From positions 1-4,648 of the IMG/VR virus record IMGVR_UViG_2645727715_000001: DNA of 4,648 nucleotides. The stretch is one strand, 5' to 3'. This document shows positions 1 to 4,648 of this stretch, one piece after another. Source of the stretch: a virus (taxonomy: Duplodnaviria > Heunggongvirae > Uroviricota > Caudoviricetes). A program made the translations under genes and the position numbers. Below the pieces are notes generated by a model. That model saw only the letters and a program-made list of their open reading frames with translations. It was not told the DNA's origin and searched no databases. Within the stretch, counting starts at the first letter, position 1; the number at the start of each line of letters is the position of its first letter.

Positions 1-303
1 CTACTGGATGAACGGGAAAGGAACCAGCAATACATCAAATCCCGCGACCAGGAGAACGAGGATATTGCGCTAACGGTAGGGAAGTTGCGCGTTGAGCTTG
101 AGGCAGAAAAACAGCGGGCAAAGGATCTGTTTATGGAAAATGCTCGGCTTAAGTCAGGTATAGCCGGTCTGATACACCTCGGTATTCGATATGCAGATGT
201 TGATGTCATGAAAATTGCTGGAGATGCCCAGCTTTCTACCCCATGCACTGACAGCATCATAAACAGCATTGCAACAGGCATTCGCATCAACGGAGGTGAG
301 TAG
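1..303 (+). CDS. 5-prime-truncated ORF continuing upstream of the window; hypothetical prophage protein, C-terminal ~100 aa with a charged helical stretch (LRVELEAEKQRAKDLFMENARLKS)
   Basis: Frame 1 is open from base 1 with no stop until TAG 301-303; the tool ORF 85-303 is only its TTG-initiated tail. Same strand and orientation as all downstream genes. Confidence 0.55.
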   Translation, partial: LLDERERNQQYIKSRDQENEDIALTVGKLRVELEAEKQRAKDLFMENARLKSGIAGLIHLGIRYADVDVMKIAGDAQLSTPCTDSIINSIATGIRINGGE

Positions 304-479
304 TGCGTGTGGCATGTATTGGCTTGTTACCGTACCCGACTCGTTTTTGGGCTTCTGCGCTAATTGCAAAGCCACAGGTCCTGATGGCTGACAACATCAC
401 CCCAGCACCAAAGCGCCGCCATACCGGTATTGCAGCGGCACGACGAGCAGCAAAGAGACGCAGGAGAGCAAAGCGATGA
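303..479 (+). CDS. Possible small ORF (58 aa, GTG start) with hydrophobic N-terminus and strongly Arg/Lys-rich C-terminus (AARRAAKRRRRAKR); below the 60-aa cut-off of the ORF track
   Basis: GTG at 303 overlaps the upstream stop (taGTG) and lies 6 nt after GGAGG (292-296); frame 3 is open to TGA 477-479, which overlaps the ATG of the next gene (ATGA). It fills an otherwise unusual 172-nt gap in a coupled operon. Alternative ATG at 384. Confidence 0.3.
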   Translation: MRVACIGLLPYPTRFWASALIAKPQVLMADNITPAPKRRHTGIAAARRAAKRRRRAKR

Positions 480-664
480 AAAACCGTAAAGCAAAGATTC
501 TGTTAGTTCGTAGAAACGCTCCTGGCGTCTGGCAGTGGGTGAGACTCAGCAACCGACGGATGGGGTTAATGAAACATTACGGGATGATGGATTGTTGGTT
601 TTGCAAAAAGCCCAGCGCGGCGCAAAACCGCTGGAAAAACCACTTGCGCACTAAAGGAGAGTGA
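476..664 (+). CDS. Small very basic protein, 62 aa (16 Lys/Arg vs 2 Asp/Glu); possible nucleic-acid-binding protein, function unknown
   Basis: ATG 476 preceded by AGGAG (462-466) at 9-nt spacing; stop TGA 662-664 followed 1 nt later by ATG 666 of the next gene. Confidence 0.55.
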   Translation: MKNRKAKILLVRRNAPGVWQWVRLSNRRMGLMKHYGMMDCWFCKKPSAAQNRWKNHLRTKGE

Positions 665-670
665 TATGGC
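653..670 (+). repeat. 18-bp gene-junction repeat AAAGGAGAGTGATATGGC, copy 1 (stop of ORF 476-664, RBS and start of ORF 666-1181)
   Basis: Exact identity with 1553-1570, read directly from sequence; both upstream proteins end in KGE. Confidence 0.9.
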
Positions 671-1181
671 GTTAACACACCGCGAACTCTGTCAGATTGC
701 GTACAAGTTCCTTAAGCGCAACGGGTTCAAGGTTTGTTTTCATGACCGCTTTATAGCTGTAACCAGTACCGGAGAACAGCCAGATGCTATGGGATTCAGA
801 AATTCAGCATCATGCCTGATAGAGGCGAAATGTTCTCGTGCTGACTTGTTGGCAGATAGAAAAAAGCGTTTTCGTAAAAATCCGTCTCTTGGAATGGGCG
901 ACTGGCGATTCTTTATTAGTGAGCCGGGAATTATTTCAATTGAGGATTTACCACCTGGCTGGGGATTACTTCACGTTGTTAACGGAAGAGTACGGAAAGT
1001 ACATGGGTGGCCCAAGGGTAATTGCTGTTGGGGTAATCCTGACGATAAGCCATTTACTGGAAATAAGCAGGTTGAATGCGATTACATGTTATCTGCATTA
1101 AGGCGTATGGAGTTGAGAGGGCACCTTAATGAAATATATGACGGTGTAATTGTTAATAAGAAAGAAGGAAACGCGGCATGA
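666..1181 (+). CDS. Putative PD-(D/E)xK-fold nuclease-like protein, 171 aa, with Cys/Trp-rich C-terminal region (GNCCWGNPDD...ECDY)
   Basis: ATG 666 with AGGAG 6 nt upstream. N-terminal region shows E7, P39-D40 followed by hydrophobic residues, then hydrophobic-IEAK (E53-x-K55) followed by a basic helix (RADLLADRKKRFRK), the classic spacing of a PD-(D/E)xK core. Stop overlaps next start (ATGA at 1178-1181). Fold assignment is motif-based only. Confidence 0.7.
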   Translation: MALTHRELCQIAYKFLKRNGFKVCFHDRFIAVTSTGEQPDAMGFRNSASCLIEAKCSRADLLADRKKRFRKNPSLGMGDWRFFISEPGIISIEDLPPGWGLLHVVNGRVRKVHGWPKGNCCWGNPDDKPFTGNKQVECDYMLSALRRMELRGHLNEIYDGVIVNKKEGNAA

Positions 1182-1564
1182 TCACTATTACCAAAGAGCG
1201 ACTGCTGACAATCAAGCAGTGGCGCGAAACATACGGACCTGGTAGCAACGTTGTACTGCCAGCAGAAGAAGCGGAAGAACTGGCACGGATTGCGCTGGCA
1301 TCGCTGGAAGCAAAACCAATAGGTGCTTTCCACATTGCAGAACAGCAGGTCGATGGCACAAGTGACTACATCAAGGATGGGGAGTGGCCTATTGATAATG
1401 GAATTATTGAGGTCTACGCCGCTCCACCCGTTCCAGTAGTACCGGAAGAAAAACCAATGCCTAATCCTCTTAGCATGTACGCGGTTGATGCTGTTGCCGC
1501 TATTGCAGAGGTGAGAGGCTGGAACGCCTGCCGCGCTGCAATGCTTCAGGGAAAAGGAGAGTGA
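1178..1564 (+). CDS. Hypothetical phage protein, 128 aa; paralog of the N-terminal half of the downstream 315-aa protein
   Basis: ATG 1178 overlapping upstream stop; GAAGGA 1164-1169 as RBS. Shares MxTITxE start, ELARI(A/V)LASLEA(K/E)P and (V/L)Y(A/T)(A/T)PP(V/A)P motifs with ORF 1772-2719, including a 34/35-nt identical DNA stretch. Confidence 0.75.
   Translation: MITITKERLLTIKQWRETYGPGSNVVLPAEEAEELARIALASLEAKPIGAFHIAEQQVDGTSDYIKDGEWPIDNGIIEVYAAPPVPVVPEEKPMPNPLSMYAVDAVAAIAEVRGWNACRAAMLQGKGE
1277..1311 (+). repeat. 35-bp in-frame repeat, copy 1 (GAACTGGCACGGATTGCGCTGGCATCGCTGGAAGC)
   Basis: 34/35 identity with 1937-1971; encodes ELARIALASLEA. Confidence 0.9.
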
Positions 1565-1570
1565 TATGGC
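1553..1570 (+). repeat. 18-bp gene-junction repeat AAAGGAGAGTGATATGGC, copy 2 (stop of ORF 1178-1564, RBS and start of ORF 1566-1775)
   Basis: Exact identity with 653-670. Confidence 0.9.
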
Positions 1571-1775
1571 TATTGCCGCAAGTTACACAATGCATCTCTA
1601 TTGTGACTGCCGCCAGTGTACGGAAGGTGTATATCCAGTGCCAGACTTCGGTGAGTATATAGGTACGTCATGGGCTGGCTGTGCAAAAGAGGCGCGCAAG
1701 GATGGCTGGCGAATAAAGCAAAGACAAACGCGTGCTTTTGCGCCTGGGCATAAAGTTTTGAGGATTAACAAATGA
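1566..1775 (+). CDS. Small Cys-rich protein, 69 aa (C13-x-C15-x2-C18 ... C39); possible zinc-ribbon-like protein
   Basis: ATG 1566 preceded by the same AAAGGAGAGTGAT junction as gene 666-1181; stop TGA 1773-1775 overlaps ATG 1772 of the next gene. Confidence 0.6.
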   Translation: MAIAASYTMHLYCDCRQCTEGVYPVPDFGEYIGTSWAGCAKEARKDGWRIKQRQTRAFAPGHKVLRINK

Positions 1776-2719
1776 CCACTATTACCAGAGAACAAGCTCT
1801 GAAAATTATTGAGGCAGCCGATGAGGTTATTAGTGCGCTGGCCGGAACTAACGAGGATGTTCACCCTGGTAGCGATAACATGCTACGCCTGTGGGATGAC
1901 CTGAATGACCGTTACGCGCCGCCGGAAATTGTGCGTGAACTGGCACGGATTGTGCTGGCATCGCTGGAAGCCGAGCCTGTTCTGTATCAGTCCTGCACTC
2001 GCCCCACCTGGAATAGCGGTGTTCCGTGGACGGAATGGAAAGAACGAAGTCGTGAGTGCTACGAAGACGATTTGCGCTTTACAGACACGCCTGACCATGC
2101 CGGTTGGATATACAAATGTCGAAAACTATATACCACTCCGCCAGCGCCGATAGCGTTAGAGGCCATTGAAAACGCAATTGAATACATCCGCAGTATCGCT
2201 TTTCACATCGATGAAGACGATTACCACGGCAAACATATTGCGTATTTCATGCAGCAAGCATTGGCCTGGCTGGAAGGGCATTCATGCAGCGACGACAGAC
2301 TGGGTAAAGCCGAGAATCAACCAGTACGCGGCAACCAGGCTGCCGAATCCAATCGCGATAATGAGTGGACTGGCAATCCTGATATTGATAACGCCATCAT
2401 CATGCTCGACCGCATAGATACGCTGGAAAATTGCGATGATGACCGTATTGAGGCTGTTAAGGCTGTTTTGCGTAGACTGGCTGGCAACTATCCGGTAATT
2501 CCGGATGGTTGGATAAGCTGTAGTGAGCGAATGCCTGAGAACATTCCCGGAAGTTGTAAAGAGTATCTGGTGTTTGATGGGCTTAATAATAAAGTTCATC
2601 ACGATTACTGGGTTGTCCCTGATGGAGACAGTGCGCCAGTTGCGTCGTTCTGGAATCATTACGGGGCACATGTAACTCACTGGATGCCTCTACCAGAACC
2701 GCCGCAGGAGGCGAAATGA
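1772..2719 (+). CDS. Phage protein, 315 aa, with C-terminal DUF551-like domain (family recalled from memory) and N-terminal module shared with ORF 1178-1564
   Basis: ATG 1772 with GAGGA 7 nt upstream. C-terminus IPDGWISCSERMPE...KEYLVFDG...HHDYWVV...FWNHYGAHVTHWMPLPEPP matches my recollection of the DUF551 pattern found in enterobacterial prophage proteins. Longest ORF in the window. Confidence 0.85.
   Translation: MTTITREQALKIIEAADEVISALAGTNEDVHPGSDNMLRLWDDLNDRYAPPEIVRELARIVLASLEAEPVLYQSCTRPTWNSGVPWTEWKERSRECYEDDLRFTDTPDHAGWIYKCRKLYTTPPAPIALEAIENAIEYIRSIAFHIDEDDYHGKHIAYFMQQALAWLEGHSCSDDRLGKAENQPVRGNQAAESNRDNEWTGNPDIDNAIIMLDRIDTLENCDDDRIEAVKAVLRRLAGNYPVIPDGWISCSERMPENIPGSCKEYLVFDGLNNKVHHDYWVVPDGDSAPVASFWNHYGAHVTHWMPLPEPPQEAK
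1937..1971 (+). repeat. 35-bp in-frame repeat, copy 2 (GAACTGGCACGGATTGTGCTGGCATCGCTGGAAGC)
   Basis: 34/35 identity with 1277-1311; encodes ELARIVLASLEA. Confidence 0.9.
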
Positions 2720-2976
2720 TGGATGTAAAAGAGAAGGTTTTGCAGGTGATGCGTTCCCGGGCTGCCCTGCAAGATAAAGCTCTCGGCGGGAAATATCCAT
2801 TCAGGATGGCAACCTGGAATCTGCGGTTGGCAATGGAGAAGGAATTTCCTGATGAAGAATGGCGTTCGGCAGATTTGCGCAAAATTCTTATGGAGATGGC
2901 TAAAGATGGAACAGTATCCAAAGATACCCATGCCAGCCGGATTGGTCAGGCGGTATGGAGACTGGAGGTGAGGTAA
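2716..2976 (+). CDS. Hypothetical small phage protein, 86 aa
   Basis: ATG 2716 overlaps upstream stop (ATGA) with strong AGGAGG (2705-2710) at 5-nt spacing; stop TAA 2974-2976. Confidence 0.65.
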   Translation: MMDVKEKVLQVMRSRAALQDKALGGKYPFRMATWNLRLAMEKEFPDEEWRSADLRKILMEMAKDGTVSKDTHASRIGQAVWRLEVR

Positions 2977-3050
2977 TAAGCTGGCCTGAAGCATTTGCGA
3001 TTGTAGGCGTAGCTATGGCGATTGCCGCTATTTTTATCTTCTGGGGGTAA
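2955..3050 (+). CDS. Candidate unannotated mini-ORF, 31 aa, single predicted transmembrane helix (METGGEVISWPEAFAIVGVAMAIAAIFIFWG)
   Basis: Frame 3 ATG 2955 to TAA 3048-3050. It exactly fills the only untranslated gap between 2976 and 3053, and its stop sits 2 nt before the ATG of the next gene. No good SD for ATG 2955; GGAGGTGAG at 2964-2972 is downstream of it. Speculative. Confidence 0.25.
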   Translation: METGGEVISWPEAFAIVGVAMAIAAIFIFWG

Positions 3051-3052
3051 CG

Positions 3053-3268
3053 ATGGGAAAATTAACTTTTGTAGTCGAATTTGAGGATGGCAAAGAGCCA
3101 CCTGTTAGCGCCAATCTTGATGTTGCTGGTGGCAGGCTGGTTTCGGTTCTATTTGGTGATTACCGCGACGACTTCTTTCAGCCTGAAGAAGTTGATGTAG
3201 TGCGAGAAGCATTAAACGAGCTAAGTGTTGATAACGATGATGCTCATGCGGAAATCATCAAAAAATGA
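3053..3268 (+). CDS. Small strongly acidic protein, 71 aa (17 Asp/Glu vs 7 Lys/Arg); candidate DNA-mimic or anti-defence-type protein (hypothesis only)
   Basis: ATG 3053 preceded by GGGGGT; residue composition counted directly from the translation; stop TGA 3266-3268. Confidence 0.65.
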   Translation: MGKLTFVVEFEDGKEPPVSANLDVAGGRLVSVLFGDYRDDFFQPEEVDVVREALNELSVDNDDAHAEIIKK

Positions 3269-3332
3269 ACTGACTACTCACTAAATTATCAATTATGGTG
3301 CTATCACCTACGACACCGAGAGAAAATTTATA

Positions 3333-3455
3333 ATGTCAAAAGTAAATGTTTTGATTTTTTCAGCAATTGTTGGCTTTGGTTTTACTGCCGGAGTGCAGAT
3401 TTATATTACGTGGGAAAAAATCATCAACTACGAATGGAGTTGTTTTATTAAGTGA
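3333..3455 (+). CDS. Candidate small membrane peptide, 40 aa (MSKVNVLIFSAIVGFGFTAGVQIYITWEKIINYEWSCFIK), one hydrophobic helix
   Basis: Frame 3 ATG 3333 to TGA 3453-3455 in the AT-rich segment. Ends 7 nt before ATG 3463, and its 3-prime end contains the GAGGT that would serve as RBS for the next gene. It competes with the TTG-initiated N-terminal extension of tool ORF 3367-3756. Confidence 0.35.
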   Translation: MSKVNVLIFSAIVGFGFTAGVQIYITWEKIINYEWSCFIK

Positions 3456-3462
3456 GGTAAGT

Positions 3463-3756
3463 ATGTGGAGAGGTAATAATCATGGCAAAAGCCAGATGAT
3501 ACTTACCGAATATAAGCTAGACCACAAAACCAATAAATCACGCTCAGTATATTTGCTCCGGCACAATAGCCGCGTAAGAAATACCGTGCTGGAACAAAAT
3601 CTGACAGTTGAAATGGATAATTGCGGGGGATTCAAGCCAACAATTTCGCTTGATGATTTTCCTCGTGGTTTAAGCGAAAGAGAAGCAATGCTGAAATTAG
3701 CAGAATGGCTACAAAGATTAAGCATTGCTATTGAAGATAACTGGTCTGAACCTTAA
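3463..3756 (+). CDS. Hypothetical protein, 97 aa if started at ATG 3463 (tool call 3367-3756 uses an upstream TTG)
   Basis: Frame 1 ORF ending TAA 3754-3756; ATG 3463 has GAGGT (3454-3458) upstream, though at short spacing; alternative in-frame ATG at 3496. Followed by a perfect hairpin-forming palindrome at 3789-3805. Confidence 0.5.
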   Translation: MWRGNNHGKSQMILTEYKLDHKTNKSRSVYLLRHNSRVRNTVLEQNLTVEMDNCGGFKPTISLDDFPRGLSEREAMLKLAEWLQRLSIAIEDNWSEP

Positions 3757-3788
3757 ATTTATATGATGACACTAAAACATTTTCTTGA

Positions 3789-3805
3789 CCGCCCATTATG
3801 GGCGG
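3789..3805. repeat. Perfect 17-bp palindrome CCGCCCA-TTA-TGGGCGG (7-bp GC-rich stem, 3-nt loop); possible RNA hairpin or dimeric-protein binding site
   Basis: Read directly; located 33 nt downstream of stop 3756; a TTGACC hexamer (3785-3790) abuts it. No U-tract follows on either strand. Confidence 0.6.
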
Positions 3806-3990
3806 CAGCCGCAGGCTATGACTTTAATTATATGGATTGCATGTCTTGTACTGCCAATGCATACGACCATTCGTTCATCCTGCTGTTTAATTCTTTAAGA
3901 ATATTGCCGGAAACAGTATTTCTTAGGTGATGGAATGACTGATATTGCCAAAATGAACATTGAAGAATGGACTAAGGAATGTGAAAAGAA

Positions 3991-4146
3991 ATGGCGCAAA
4001 AAGAAATGACCAGAATCACTGAAGAGCGCATATCAGAGATTATTTCCCGTATCGAAATGTATGGTCACGGTGCTGGATATACGGCAGATGAAGTATTGGA
4101 AATAGCCCAGCAGATGCTGGCCTTGAGACAAAAAAGAGCAACATGA
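3991..4146 (+). CDS. Possible short ORF, 51 aa (MAQKEMTRITEERISEIISRIEMYGHGAGYTADEVLEIAQQMLALRQKRAT); may be a fragment of a disrupted gene
   Basis: Frame 1 ATG 3991 to TGA 4144-4146. It is overlapped by a 24-codon ORF (3935-4009, frame 2, good AGGTGA RBS) and followed by a frame 2 ORF, so the region looks frame-broken. Confidence 0.3.
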   Translation: MAQKEMTRITEERISEIISRIEMYGHGAGYTADEVLEIAQQMLALRQKRAT

Positions 4147-4162
4147 AAGCAATACGTGTAGA

Positions 4163-4552
4163 TTGAATTTTGAGCAGTGGCTGGAACAGCAACGCGGGAA
4201 AATCGATGTGGACTGTGGTTGTGTGTCCACTGAAACATTCATGCACTGGCTGCGGGTAGCTTACGAGGCTGGCAACTATCCGGATATTCCGGATAGTTCG
4301 GCGCAAGCACCAGGGAAGGGGGGGCTTCCCCGGAGAGCGGATTCGAATTAAGCCGCATGTTTACCGTGAACTGGTTAACCGCCTCCACGATACAGCGATC
4401 AAGTGTGCTGGCACCCAGCAATTACGGGAAAGAATTAGCCGCGTTTTTGGCGAAGTTATTACACCAGATCGTCATAAACAAGCCGAGAAAAGCGGTCTGG
4501 AAAGGAGTCATCTTGAAGCGGCATTAAACATTAAACCGGGCAGTACGCTAGT
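4163..4552 (+). pseudogene. Frame-disrupted or mis-sequenced gene: frame 2 ORF (4163-4351, TTG start) continues without any start codon in frame 3 from 4260 to the end of reliable sequence
   Basis: Frame 3 is open from 4260 onward but has no ATG/GTG/TTG; the frame 2 to frame 3 switch coincides with a G7 run (4318-4324). Deleting one G would join the two into one ORF (...APGKGGFPGERIRIKPHVYRELVNRLHDTAIKC...). Confidence 0.35.
4276..4296. repeat. 21-bp inverted repeat CTATCCGGA-TAT-TCCGGATAG (9-bp arms); also a direct repeat of TCCGGATA
   Basis: Read directly; lies inside ORF 4163-4351, encoding YPDIPDS. Confidence 0.5.
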
Positions 4553-4648
4553 GGGGAAAAATTTTTCCCCGGGAAAAAAATTTTTGGGGTTTTTAAAAAA
4601 ACCCCAAAAAAAGGGGCCCCCTTTTAAAAAACCCCGGGTTTTAAAAAA
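4553..4648. other. Low-complexity homopolymer-stutter tract (GGGG AAAAA TTTTT CCCC GGG AAAAAAA ...), most likely sequencing or assembly artefact at a contig/read end rather than genomic sequence
   Basis: Every base occurs in runs of 3-7, cycling through all four nucleotides for about 96 bp to the end of the window; nothing like this occurs in the preceding 4.5 kb. Confidence 0.7.

Follow-up and report, generated by a model that had tools for sequence, protein, structure and literature searches.

A one-strand chain of overlapping accessory genes in a P1-like plasmid prophage of Escherichia coli, predicted to be the distal half of a C1-controlled early operon

The 4,648-nucleotide (nt) stretch of viral DNA studied here (IMG/VR record IMGVR_UViG_2645727715_000001, Caudoviricetes; referred to throughout as the window) carries a chain of small genes on one strand and, judged by sequence comparison, is part of a P1-like plasmid prophage of Escherichia coli. 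Ten + strand open reading frames (ORFs) cover 3264 of the 3268 bases from position 1 to 3268, confirming the run of ten consecutive reading frames reported by an original prediction made from the letters alone; nine of them look like genes, whereas ORF9 is probably not one (Table 1). The nine junctions between them comprise four ATGA overlaps, two TGAtATG joints, one TAGTG (1-nt overlap), a 22-nt overlap of ORF8 and ORF9 and a 2-nt spacer between ORF9 and ORF10. Stop/start coupling of the ATGA or TGAnATG kind had been called near-universal, which is borne out at seven of the nine junctions if TAGTG is included and does not extend to the remaining two. The AGGAG-type ribosome-binding sites proposed in the same place hold in part: duplex energies with the anti-Shine-Dalgarno (anti-SD) sequence are within the best ~4% of window positions at six starts (ORF2, 3, 4, 6, 8 and 10), moderate at ORF5 (GAAGGAA) and ORF7 (GAGGA) and weak at ORF9.

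Chains of abutting ORFs of at least 30 amino acids (aa) reach a length of at least 10 on the + strand (12 counting alternative ORFs) and 4 on the − strand, and because 300 shuffles reach at most 4, a chance origin of the + strand chain is ruled far out. The chain also overruns positions 1-3268 on both sides. Same-strand genes run on past 3268 to the end of the window, and in the close relative L129, whose positions 8230-12780 correspond to the window, the chain starts ~3 kb further upstream (L-numbers denote the fetched comparison loci, among which L005 is P1, AF234172, L001 is pKD0845-2 and L135 is lambda, NC_001416). From 5293 to 11205 of L129, 14 consecutive junctions are 8-, 4- or 1-nt overlaps or single-base spacers, GTGA overlaps included. 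Stops and starts that overlap or nearly touch, the SD being contained in the upstream gene, are thus found at seven of nine junctions in the window and at 14 consecutive ones in L129, an anatomy from which we infer coupling by termination-reinitiation along the gene chain. Ribosomes would pass from gene to gene, each start overlapping or abutting the preceding stop (ATGA, GTGA, TAGTG or TGAtATG) and each SD lying within the last codons of the upstream gene.

Table 1 Features of the window; three numbers separated by slashes are variable sites at codon positions 1/2/3 among homologues.
Feature	Position	Strand	Description	Matches and other evidence
ORF1	1-303	+	Partial; C-terminal 100 codons of a 162-aa Ead/Ea22-family protein; ends ...GIRINGGE-stop; gene starts 186 nt upstream of the window (162-aa gene = L129 8044-8532)	Pfam PF13935 E=3e-13; PHROGs 11761, 368; 11/17/32
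ORF2	303-479	+	58 aa, very basic (pI 12); GTG start overlaps ORF1 stop (TAGTG); annotated in RCS47, MH422554 and pUTAK-8-2, uncalled in L129-L134	phrog_13831 E=5e-40, full length; SD GGAGGT, -10.8 kcal/mol
ORF3	476-664	+	62 aa, basic; ATGA overlap with ORF2; ends ...TKGE-stop	phrog_1380 E=3e-38; full-length homologues intact 15/15
Portable joint, copy 1	653-670	+	AAAGGAGAGTGATATGGC; ORF3/ORF4 junction	Exact direct repeat with 1553-1570
ORF4	666-1181	+	171 aa; predicted PD-(D/E)XK-fold nuclease-like protein, nearest MmcB/SPO1766	phrog_9263, phrog_631; 10/8/41
ORF5	1178-1564	+	128 aa, acidic; ATGA overlap with ORF4; ends ...GKGE-stop	PHROGs 60, 5117, 3323; direct repeats D1, D2 with ORF7; 31/23/87
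Portable joint, copy 2	1553-1570	+	Identical 18-mer; ORF5/ORF6 junction	
ORF6	1566-1775	+	69 aa, Cys-rich	phrog_926 E=3e-35; 12/8/31
ORF7	1772-2719	+	315 aa: shared N-terminal module, middle region, C-terminal DUF551 (residues 246-312); ATGA overlap at each end	Pfam PF04448 E=9e-14; 34/32/89
ORF8	2716-2976	+	86 aa, basic; 'eaa protein' in RCS47 (gp054); last gene of the lambdoid-shared block	phrog_2814 E=2e-52; SD AGGAGG, -10.3 kcal/mol; full-length homologues intact 7/7
ORF9	2955-3050	+	Doubtful; 31 hydrophobic codons	8/7/9
Boundary/spacer	2977-3052		Lambdoid-shared block (1-2977) meets P1-only block (2978-4551)	
ORF10	3053-3268	+	71 aa, acidic (pI 4.2)	phrog_3876 E=5e-48, profile positions 1-71 of 77; 4/0/18
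ORF11	3333-3455	+	40 aa, hydrophobic; called in L129 and L133	
ORF12	3463-3756	+	97 aa; called in L129 and L133	Strong SD; 17/8/41
207-aa gene, 5' 90%	3991-4551	+	PmgT-C/PmgU-like 'putative morphogenetic protein'; last ~65 nt absent from the window	
Tail	4552-4648		Low-complexity, apparently non-biological; outside the element	

Nine of the ten ORFs match PHROG families, all of unknown function, and scans of the ten with Pfam and NCBIfam recognised only Ead_Ea22 (ORF1) and DUF551 (ORF7). Among homologues in the fetched loci, a clear excess of variation at the third codon position was observed for ORF1, 4, 5, 6, 7, 8 and 10, and also for ORF12, which follows the chain. The excess is weak for ORF2 and ORF3, for which the coding case lies in in-frame indels, preserved frames and a synonymous share above neutral: in diverged ORF2 homologues every indel is a multiple of 3 (3, 21, 21, 21 and 6), the frames of both ORFs stay open, and synonymous changes (20 against 26 non-synonymous in ORF2, 55 against 100 in ORF3) make up 35-43% of the changed codons, compared with a neutral expectation of ~25%, itself a rough estimate. 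On this evidence ORF2 is probably a real gene. ORF9, which straddles the border between two mosaic blocks, has no PHROG match and no third-position excess and is uncalled in six independently annotated contigs; its homologues differ by 0 synonymous and 3 non-synonymous changes, the copy in SJ46 contains an internal stop, and its SD is weak. It is probably not a gene; without it the chain consists of nine genes, with 76 nt of spacer at 2977-3052.

Several differences set the window apart from all close relatives (positions 596, 598, 1717/1725, 3265-3275, 4130, 4318 and 4540-4543), and these are probably read-end or base-calling errors. They leave the ORF chain in 1-3268 unchanged except for the stop of ORF10, which the indels at 3265-3275 shift to 3268, the relatives' protein having 77 aa and ending at ~3284. 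In ORF6 a compensating pair, +A at 1717 and -A at 1725, alters three or four residues (RIKQRQT in the window, RISKDKT in the relatives), and extra homopolymer bases at 4130 (A7, not A6) and 4318 (G7, not G6) split the 207-aa gene into three ORFs. All alignments to relatives end at 4549-4551; the 97 nt that follow consist of runs of 4-7 identical bases (GGGGAAAAATTTTTCCCC...), match no relative, yield three spurious 'terminator-like' matches and look like an artificial read-end or assembly product.

Annotation of the sister elements is uneven. RefSeq/PGAP labels the ORF4 homologue in pKD0845-2 (L001 9666-9844) 'frameshifted' and leaves the rest unannotated, and the picture is similar in L127 and L128. 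We rejected this frameshift, as the 171-aa ORF is intact there and identical to the window copy, and likewise rejected a common truncation of ORF4 to 37 aa, an artefact of one cluster representative, most copies being intact. Several of the 'pseudogene' flags in the region may thus have arisen only because the reference proteins used for comparison were assembled differently. These flags, which fall on many pieces in sister plasmids, would suit the view that the chain is mostly evolutionary debris, made of recombination scars and decaying hitch-hiking cargo in which coupling has no present function, as would the lack of conservation of ORF9, the growth of classical P1 without the whole 7.5 kb of the array and the joint relic that lambda retains without a downstream gene (both described below). 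Such decay is very unlikely, however, given the clear third-position bias of seven ORFs, the in-frame indels and preserved frames of ORF2 and ORF3, the 324 homologues of ORF4 with their invariant catalytic-type residues, the wide distribution of an identical 315-aa ORF7 and the fact that at least one 'frameshifted' flag, that on the intact and identical ORF4 copy, is an annotation artefact.

At the nucleotide level the window is matched best by E. coli plasmids of ~95 kb and by P1-like phages (RCS47, SJ46 and 'Punavirus P1'), and Stx-converting lambdoid phages match it in parts only. Alignment of positions 1-4551 from end to end at 99.7% identity was obtained with P1-like contigs only, namely L129, L132 and L133 (53.6-95.8 kb in length, two being ~96 kb). 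In all three the array is flanked by pap (HAD_PNKP) upstream and by hot, humD, phd-doc, pdcB, lpa, pacA and pacB downstream; L129 and L133 contain the whole C1 repressor gene, which in L132 is truncated by the end of the locus. Positions 2978-4551 occur at 432 plasmid and 20 chromosomal places (n = 452) and, among phages, in P1-like ones only, and positions 4261-4549 are 88% identical to P1 85182-85466 (pmgT/pmgU). Because 2978-4551 is P1-specific and the full-length matches are all P1-like, we place the window, on these comparisons, in a P1-like plasmid prophage of E. coli and not in a lambdoid prophage. That the locus lies inside a prophage, as had been presumed, is thereby upheld.

Taken with its 99.7%-identical relatives, the window shows the hallmarks of the P1-like pap-hot region (PpmgT operon), namely, in the relatives, the locus between pap and hot and the operator/promoter stretch and, in the window too, a pmgT/pmgU-like 3' end. 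The stretch from pmgT to humD has been described as 'variable region 8' of P1-like phage-plasmids (PMC9603915), P1 does not need its own genes at this position (PMC10695390), and in JL22, RCS47 and SJ46 the locus is occupied by related replacement clusters that contain ea22/eaA-type genes. Classical P1 is without the array: P1 13700-15183 (L005 coordinates) corresponds to L129 3489-4972 and P1 15183-15529 to L129 12491-12840, so that 7.5 kb (L129 4973-12490) are absent, and with them the whole of the window's first ~4.2 kb. When P1 pmgT (L005 14489-15558) was compared with L129 4278-5006 and 12222-12845, its first ~231 codons proved to be those of a 242-aa ASCH-like gene and its last ~77 codons to lie in the 3' portion of the 207-aa gene, in a different reading frame. 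From its sequence, P1 pmgT thus looks like the product of a deletion that fused two genes, and microhomology at the fusion point amounts to no more than 1-2 nt; the overlapping pmgU, judged by position alone, is probably an in-frame remnant of the 207-aa gene. Upstream of the window, L129 4278-8044 (also L132 and L133) encodes, besides several unknown proteins, the ASCH-like protein, a 288-aa second paralogue of Ea22 and a DUF4752 protein, and pKD0845-2 and p3CM-97kb have a protein with a PAPS-reductase domain in that half instead; by these comparisons, the region before the window is as variable in gene content as the window is.

The first 3 kb of the window have a second home. Positions 1-2977 are 99.5% identical to a block in the P22-like lambdoid prophage L131, whose gene order is cI, an N-like antiterminator (phrog_271), a Nun-like protein, cIII, kil, erf, abc2, ..., Ea22, the array, a xis-like gene, int and host sbcB. 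In a third prophage type, L134, positions 1-2721 recur at 99.8% identity between replication genes (DnaT, lambda-P-like) and terminase, and pieces of the block lie between exo/bet and xis/int of Stx phages at 93-97% identity. Homology to both L131 and the Stx phages stops at 2977. The exact ORF7 protein, annotated 'DUF551 domain-containing protein [E. coli]', occurs in 178 blocks of the assembly collection. The block is thus found in three prophage architectures, each time in what reads as a one-strand early operon. A 2014 survey of 24 temperate coliphages found no recent exchange between lambda-like phages and the P1-P2-Mu group (PMC3945230); by its sequence identity, the 3-kb block is a clear case of exchange between the lambda-like and P1 groups.

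Taken by itself, this block fits the lambdoid early accessory operon that the original prediction had proposed. Window array and lambdoid exo-xis/ea region both consist of small accessory genes on one strand, with Ead/Ea22 and DUF551 proteins among the products; dispensability and, as predicted for the window array, early expression under a repressor are further common features, although the lambda genes orf60a, orf61, orf63 and ea8.5 are not present in the window array. The proposal survives for gene content and for the sister block in L131, and fails for the replicon and the control system, which are of P1 type; the lambdoid region is under pL, whereas the window copy would be under a C1 operator in a P1-like plasmid prophage. 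The suggested nucleotide-level placement between integrase/excisionase and recombination genes is likewise right for block 1-2977 in L131 only, the window as a whole matching P1-like contigs end to end. Reading the window as the pL operon of an integrated lambdoid prophage, running from the recombination genes to xis/int with N-type antitermination, would draw on the block in exactly such a position in L131 (99.5%), on the pieces between exo/bet and xis/int in Stx phages and on the expression of the lambda exo-xis region from pL (PMC7093339). Yet positions 2978-4551 are without a lambdoid counterpart and occur in P1-like phages and ~95 kb plasmids only, the window end is homologous to P1 pmgT/pmgU, the end-to-end matches are P1-like, and the position between exo/bet or erf and xis/int is that of the L131 block and the Stx pieces and not that of the window. 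We consider a lambdoid pL operon improbable for this window.

With the element placed in the P1-like group, its control signals can be considered. No recognisable internal promoter or terminator was found in 1-3268, in agreement with the original prediction. A consensus scan of the whole window gave no sigma-70-like site on the + strand and 3 on the - strand (7.4 in shuffles, both strands), and the only + strand terminator-like site in 1-3268 was a weak and otherwise unsupported 6-bp hairpin at 3015-3031 that lies outside the minimum-energy fold (z = -0.76). A search of the window for P1 C1 operators found none; Lpa-type/P1 late-promoter-like sites were absent from 1-3268, one weak site lying at 3496; and Rfam gave a single chance-level match at E<=1. 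Because the one-strand chain is without recognisable internal signals, an upstream promoter is needed.

A candidate is annotated in P1. Directly after the pap stop, GenBank AF234172 lists a C1 operator, OpmgT (formerly Op88), and two predicted promoters, P2pmgT and P1pmgT, that overlap it. This stretch is conserved in four aligned elements including pKD0845-2, MH422554 and RCS47, the operator being identical in three and one base off in RCS47. In L129 it is matched at 4083-4099, 4.1 kb upstream of the window, and the whole L129 locus holds 3 C1 operator matches against 0.02 expected by chance. Strong hairpin-plus-U sites on the + strand lie at L129 3524-3552, before pap, and at 12880-12909, ~100 nt past the last genuine window base; the latter has dG -20.3 kcal/mol and z -5.1, and no terminators of like strength were found between the two. 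From these signals we predict a single ~8.8 kb unit of about 19 genes, from OpmgT-PpmgT to the terminator before hot, of which the window would be the distal half. Antitermination under pL and N, as put forward for this window, is not supported, since the upstream element in the relatives is the C1 operator OpmgT with the predicted PpmgT. P1 has no demonstrated antiterminator, though one is suspected (PMC10695390), and a P1vir RNA-seq paper does not mention these genes.

Transcription would then start from PpmgT, overlapping OpmgT after pap, and run through ~8.8 kb to the terminator before hot. C1 would keep the genes silent in the lysogen, and C1 inactivation would bring about their joint early expression, a timing suggested because the repressor operator precedes the unit. 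Taken together, we think it likely that the window makes up the distal half of a long C1-controlled early operon in the pap-to-hot region of a P1-like plasmid prophage, assembled from lambdoid-type cassettes. Several points weigh against this account. The window contains neither flank, and its context is taken from 99.7%-identical relatives; promoter, operator occupancy and terminator are either predicted from sequence or transferred from P1 annotation; and translational coupling is argued from junction geometry alone. Moreover, a simple promoter scan is blind to weak or activator-dependent promoters, the late-promoter-like site at 3496, weak as it is, is of the Lpa type, and the spacers of 76, 48 and 234 nt past 2977 could harbour internal signals.

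These last points bear on a second alternative, in which several transcripts would arise from missed internal promoters (weak sigma-70, Lpa-dependent late or stress-dependent), as for the unverified lambda 'p1' upstream of ea22. A predicted extra promoter upstream of ea22 has been discussed (PMC7093339), and the site at 3496 and the spacers of 76-234 nt past 2977 would offer places for others. We nevertheless hold this alternative to be unlikely in view of the complete lack of + strand sigma-70-like sites in 4.6 kb (compared with 7.4 on both strands of shuffles), of C1 operators in the window and of late-promoter-like sites in 1-3268, and of the 14 consecutive tight junctions in L129, which are too tight for a promoter to fit between the coding sequences.

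The PpmgT leader itself (L129 4181-4267 and 4132-4154) is conserved from P1 to all array-bearing relatives. Within it lie a GC-rich hairpin (ACATGCCG...CGGCATGT), whose U-run is confined to the opposite strand, and a hydrophobic ORF of 28 codons (MNTAFKIIMAAIYFWLFSITFGGIVAHG) that has a good SD and is unannotated; SJ46 has a 'membrane protein' annotated at this place.

Within the predicted C1-controlled operon, the genes would be exchangeable cassettes of the lambdoid ea/exo-xis type, encoding Ea22, DUF551/EaA-like proteins, small basic or acidic proteins and a PD-(D/E)XK nuclease-like protein. The last of these, ORF4, has 324 homologues across Enterobacterales, and D27, E37, D40, E53 and K55 are invariant in an alignment of 34 sequences. 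Its AlphaFold2 model (pLDDT 84) gave as top Foldseek hit 3dnx (SPO1766; E=5.5e-6, TMq 0.58), followed by Hjc, an R2 endonuclease domain, HincII and NucS. ORF4 had no Pfam or NCBIfam match at E<=0.01, and searches of PDB sequences with ORF4, ORF7 and ORF8 returned nothing meaningful. From the structural model, ORF4 is predicted to be a PD-(D/E)XK nuclease-like protein missed by sequence models: it resembles MmcB-like/PD-(D/E)XK nucleases in its predicted fold, with the alpha-beta-beta-beta-alpha-beta core and the D...(D/E)-x-K motif of that superfamily, and in the invariant D, E and K in the expected strands, whereas no curated sequence model matches it. The model of ORF7 (pLDDT 40; shallow alignment of 69-100% identity) was unusable. 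The remaining products include very basic proteins (ORF2 and ORF3), acidic ones (ORF5, ORF7 and ORF10) and the Cys-rich ORF6 protein. PADLOC defence-system models run against the ten ORFs gave only a sub-threshold PglZ fragment on ORF5 (E=0.0016, 14.9 bits), which was disregarded. PADLOC thus lends no support to the defence or anti-defence roles of the original prediction, and a role in host takeover or anti-defence would be no more than a possibility. The exo-xis region of lambda and Stx phages modulates the lysis-lysogeny balance, and Ea22 is pro-lysogenic (PMC7093339, PMC3824215). Together with the ORF4 fold, this literature suggests that the products would be dispensable accessory proteins, most likely for host/phage DNA transactions and the lysis-lysogeny balance.

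How such cassettes could be exchanged while remaining coupled is suggested by the 18-mer AAAGGAGAGTGATATGGC, which occurs twice in the window. It contains an SD (AAGGAG), the upstream gene's last codons K-G-E and TGA, one spacer base and the ATG-GC of the downstream gene. It was found in at least 120 IMG/VR viral contigs; among the matches listed, 118 of 127 occurrences are flanked on either side by correctly framed ORFs of at least 30 aa. It joins at least 15 upstream with at least 14 downstream protein clusters in at least 39 combinations. Among the matches listed, conservation extends ~20 nt further upstream (GC-GGCATTCGCATC, coding 'AGIRI') and collapses just past ATGGC, so that a joint of ~35 nt, ...GGCATTCGCATCAAAGGAGAGTGAtATGGC, is common to otherwise unrelated gene pairs. 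The end of ORF1 is a variant of it (GGCATTCGCATCAACGGAGGTGAGTAGTG, coding GIRINGGE and the stop). Lambda ea22 ends (L135 2340-2375, - strand) in GCTGGCATTCGCATCAAAGGAGAGTGA, the conserved ...GIRIKGE-TGA joint; no ATG is next to it and ~190 nt of non-coding sequence follow, and it looks like a relic after loss of a downstream cassette. Three unrelated proteins of the window end in GGE or KGE. All Ea22 proteins have been reported to end in K/R-G-E despite unrelated C-terminal domains, with 'significance unknown' (PMC7093339); the joint offers an explanation for this '+GE' end, because the SD of the next gene is translated within it.

Endpoints of homology between the window and the fetched loci concentrate at gene junctions: 59% of 359 lie within 30 nt of one, compared with 18.5% expected. 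The loci had been picked for carrying the 18-mer, which weighs against taking this figure at face value, and with the two 18-mer junctions left out the share is roughly 47% against ~15% expected (an estimate from the same table). Domain borders inside ORF1, ORF5 and ORF7 are further hot spots. Conserved gene-boundary sequences are an established idea as targets of homologous exchange in phage mosaicism (PMC3974807, PMC3945230), and conserved joints of this sort may be the sites of the homologous exchange that built the array. We put forward, tentatively and as a possibility that we rate below an even chance, that the ~35-nt joint (...GGCATTCGCATC AAAGGAGAG TGA t ATGGC) is a 'linker' for swapping of cassettes by Rad52-type recombinases with coupling kept. 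A further point against this proposal is that the joint may be conserved in part because efficient initiation is selected for. If the proposal is true, temperate phages of lambdoid, P22-like and P1-like type in Enterobacteriaceae would share an integron-like cassette system operating by homologous recombination, the '+GE' tripeptide would be a by-product of the joint, and the recent move of the 3-kb block between lambda-like and P1 groups would be explained.

Sequence and organisation of the window are already known, with near-identical copies in many public E. coli plasmid and prophage assemblies. Chains of this kind also have a precedent in the lambda ninR region, reportedly described by Kroger and Hobom in 1982 (Gene 20:25) as a 'chain of interlinked genes', with small one-strand genes, ATGA-type overlaps and a long early transcript; ninR is alike in its overlapping accessory genes and differs from the window array in the genes themselves and in the operon they belong to. 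The window has little discovery value, because the sequence is public, the locus has been described as a variable region and overlapping-gene chains have been known since ninR. What is added is the placement in a P1-like plasmid prophage under a C1 operator instead of a lambdoid pL operon, the occurrence of one block in three prophage architectures, a testable account of the Ea22 '+GE' end and of the shuffling of the accessory array, and a fold assignment for ORF4, a widespread protein of unknown function; only the portable joint and the '+GE' explanation go slightly past the published record. P1-like phage-plasmids matter in practice because they carry resistance genes in variable regions of this sort.

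A scan of species-representative genomes (596 Gb) for the 18-mer gave 58 matches, mostly chance ones in unrelated metagenome-assembled genomes (~17 chance matches estimated); only those in Enterobacter and Escherichia look genuine, and the host range is not informed further by them. Other repeats were also observed. A 32-nt direct repeat at 2479-2510 and 4267-4298 (91% identical) contains the palindrome ATCCGG-n5-CCGGAT and codes for AGNYP-x-IPD; one copy lies in the linker before the DUF551 domain of ORF7 and the other in the 207-aa gene, 5 nt past the point where P1 homology resumes, and JL22 has a homologous stretch annotated within eaA. This repeat is likely a recombination hot spot. ORF5 and ORF7 share an N-terminal module, M-x-TIT-K/R-E...ELARI-LASLEA, encoded at 1178-1312 and at 1772-1806 plus 1937-1971; the ORF7 copy is interrupted by an extra segment of ~130 nt, and many breakpoints fall at the module end (1305-1319). 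In phrog_9263 (230 positions) ORF3 aligns to 1-61 and ORF4 to 62-230, and phrog_12350 links ORF3 to a different upstream part; by these profile alignments, in some phages the ORF3 and ORF4 cassettes would be annotated as, or really be, fused proteins across the TGAtATG joint.

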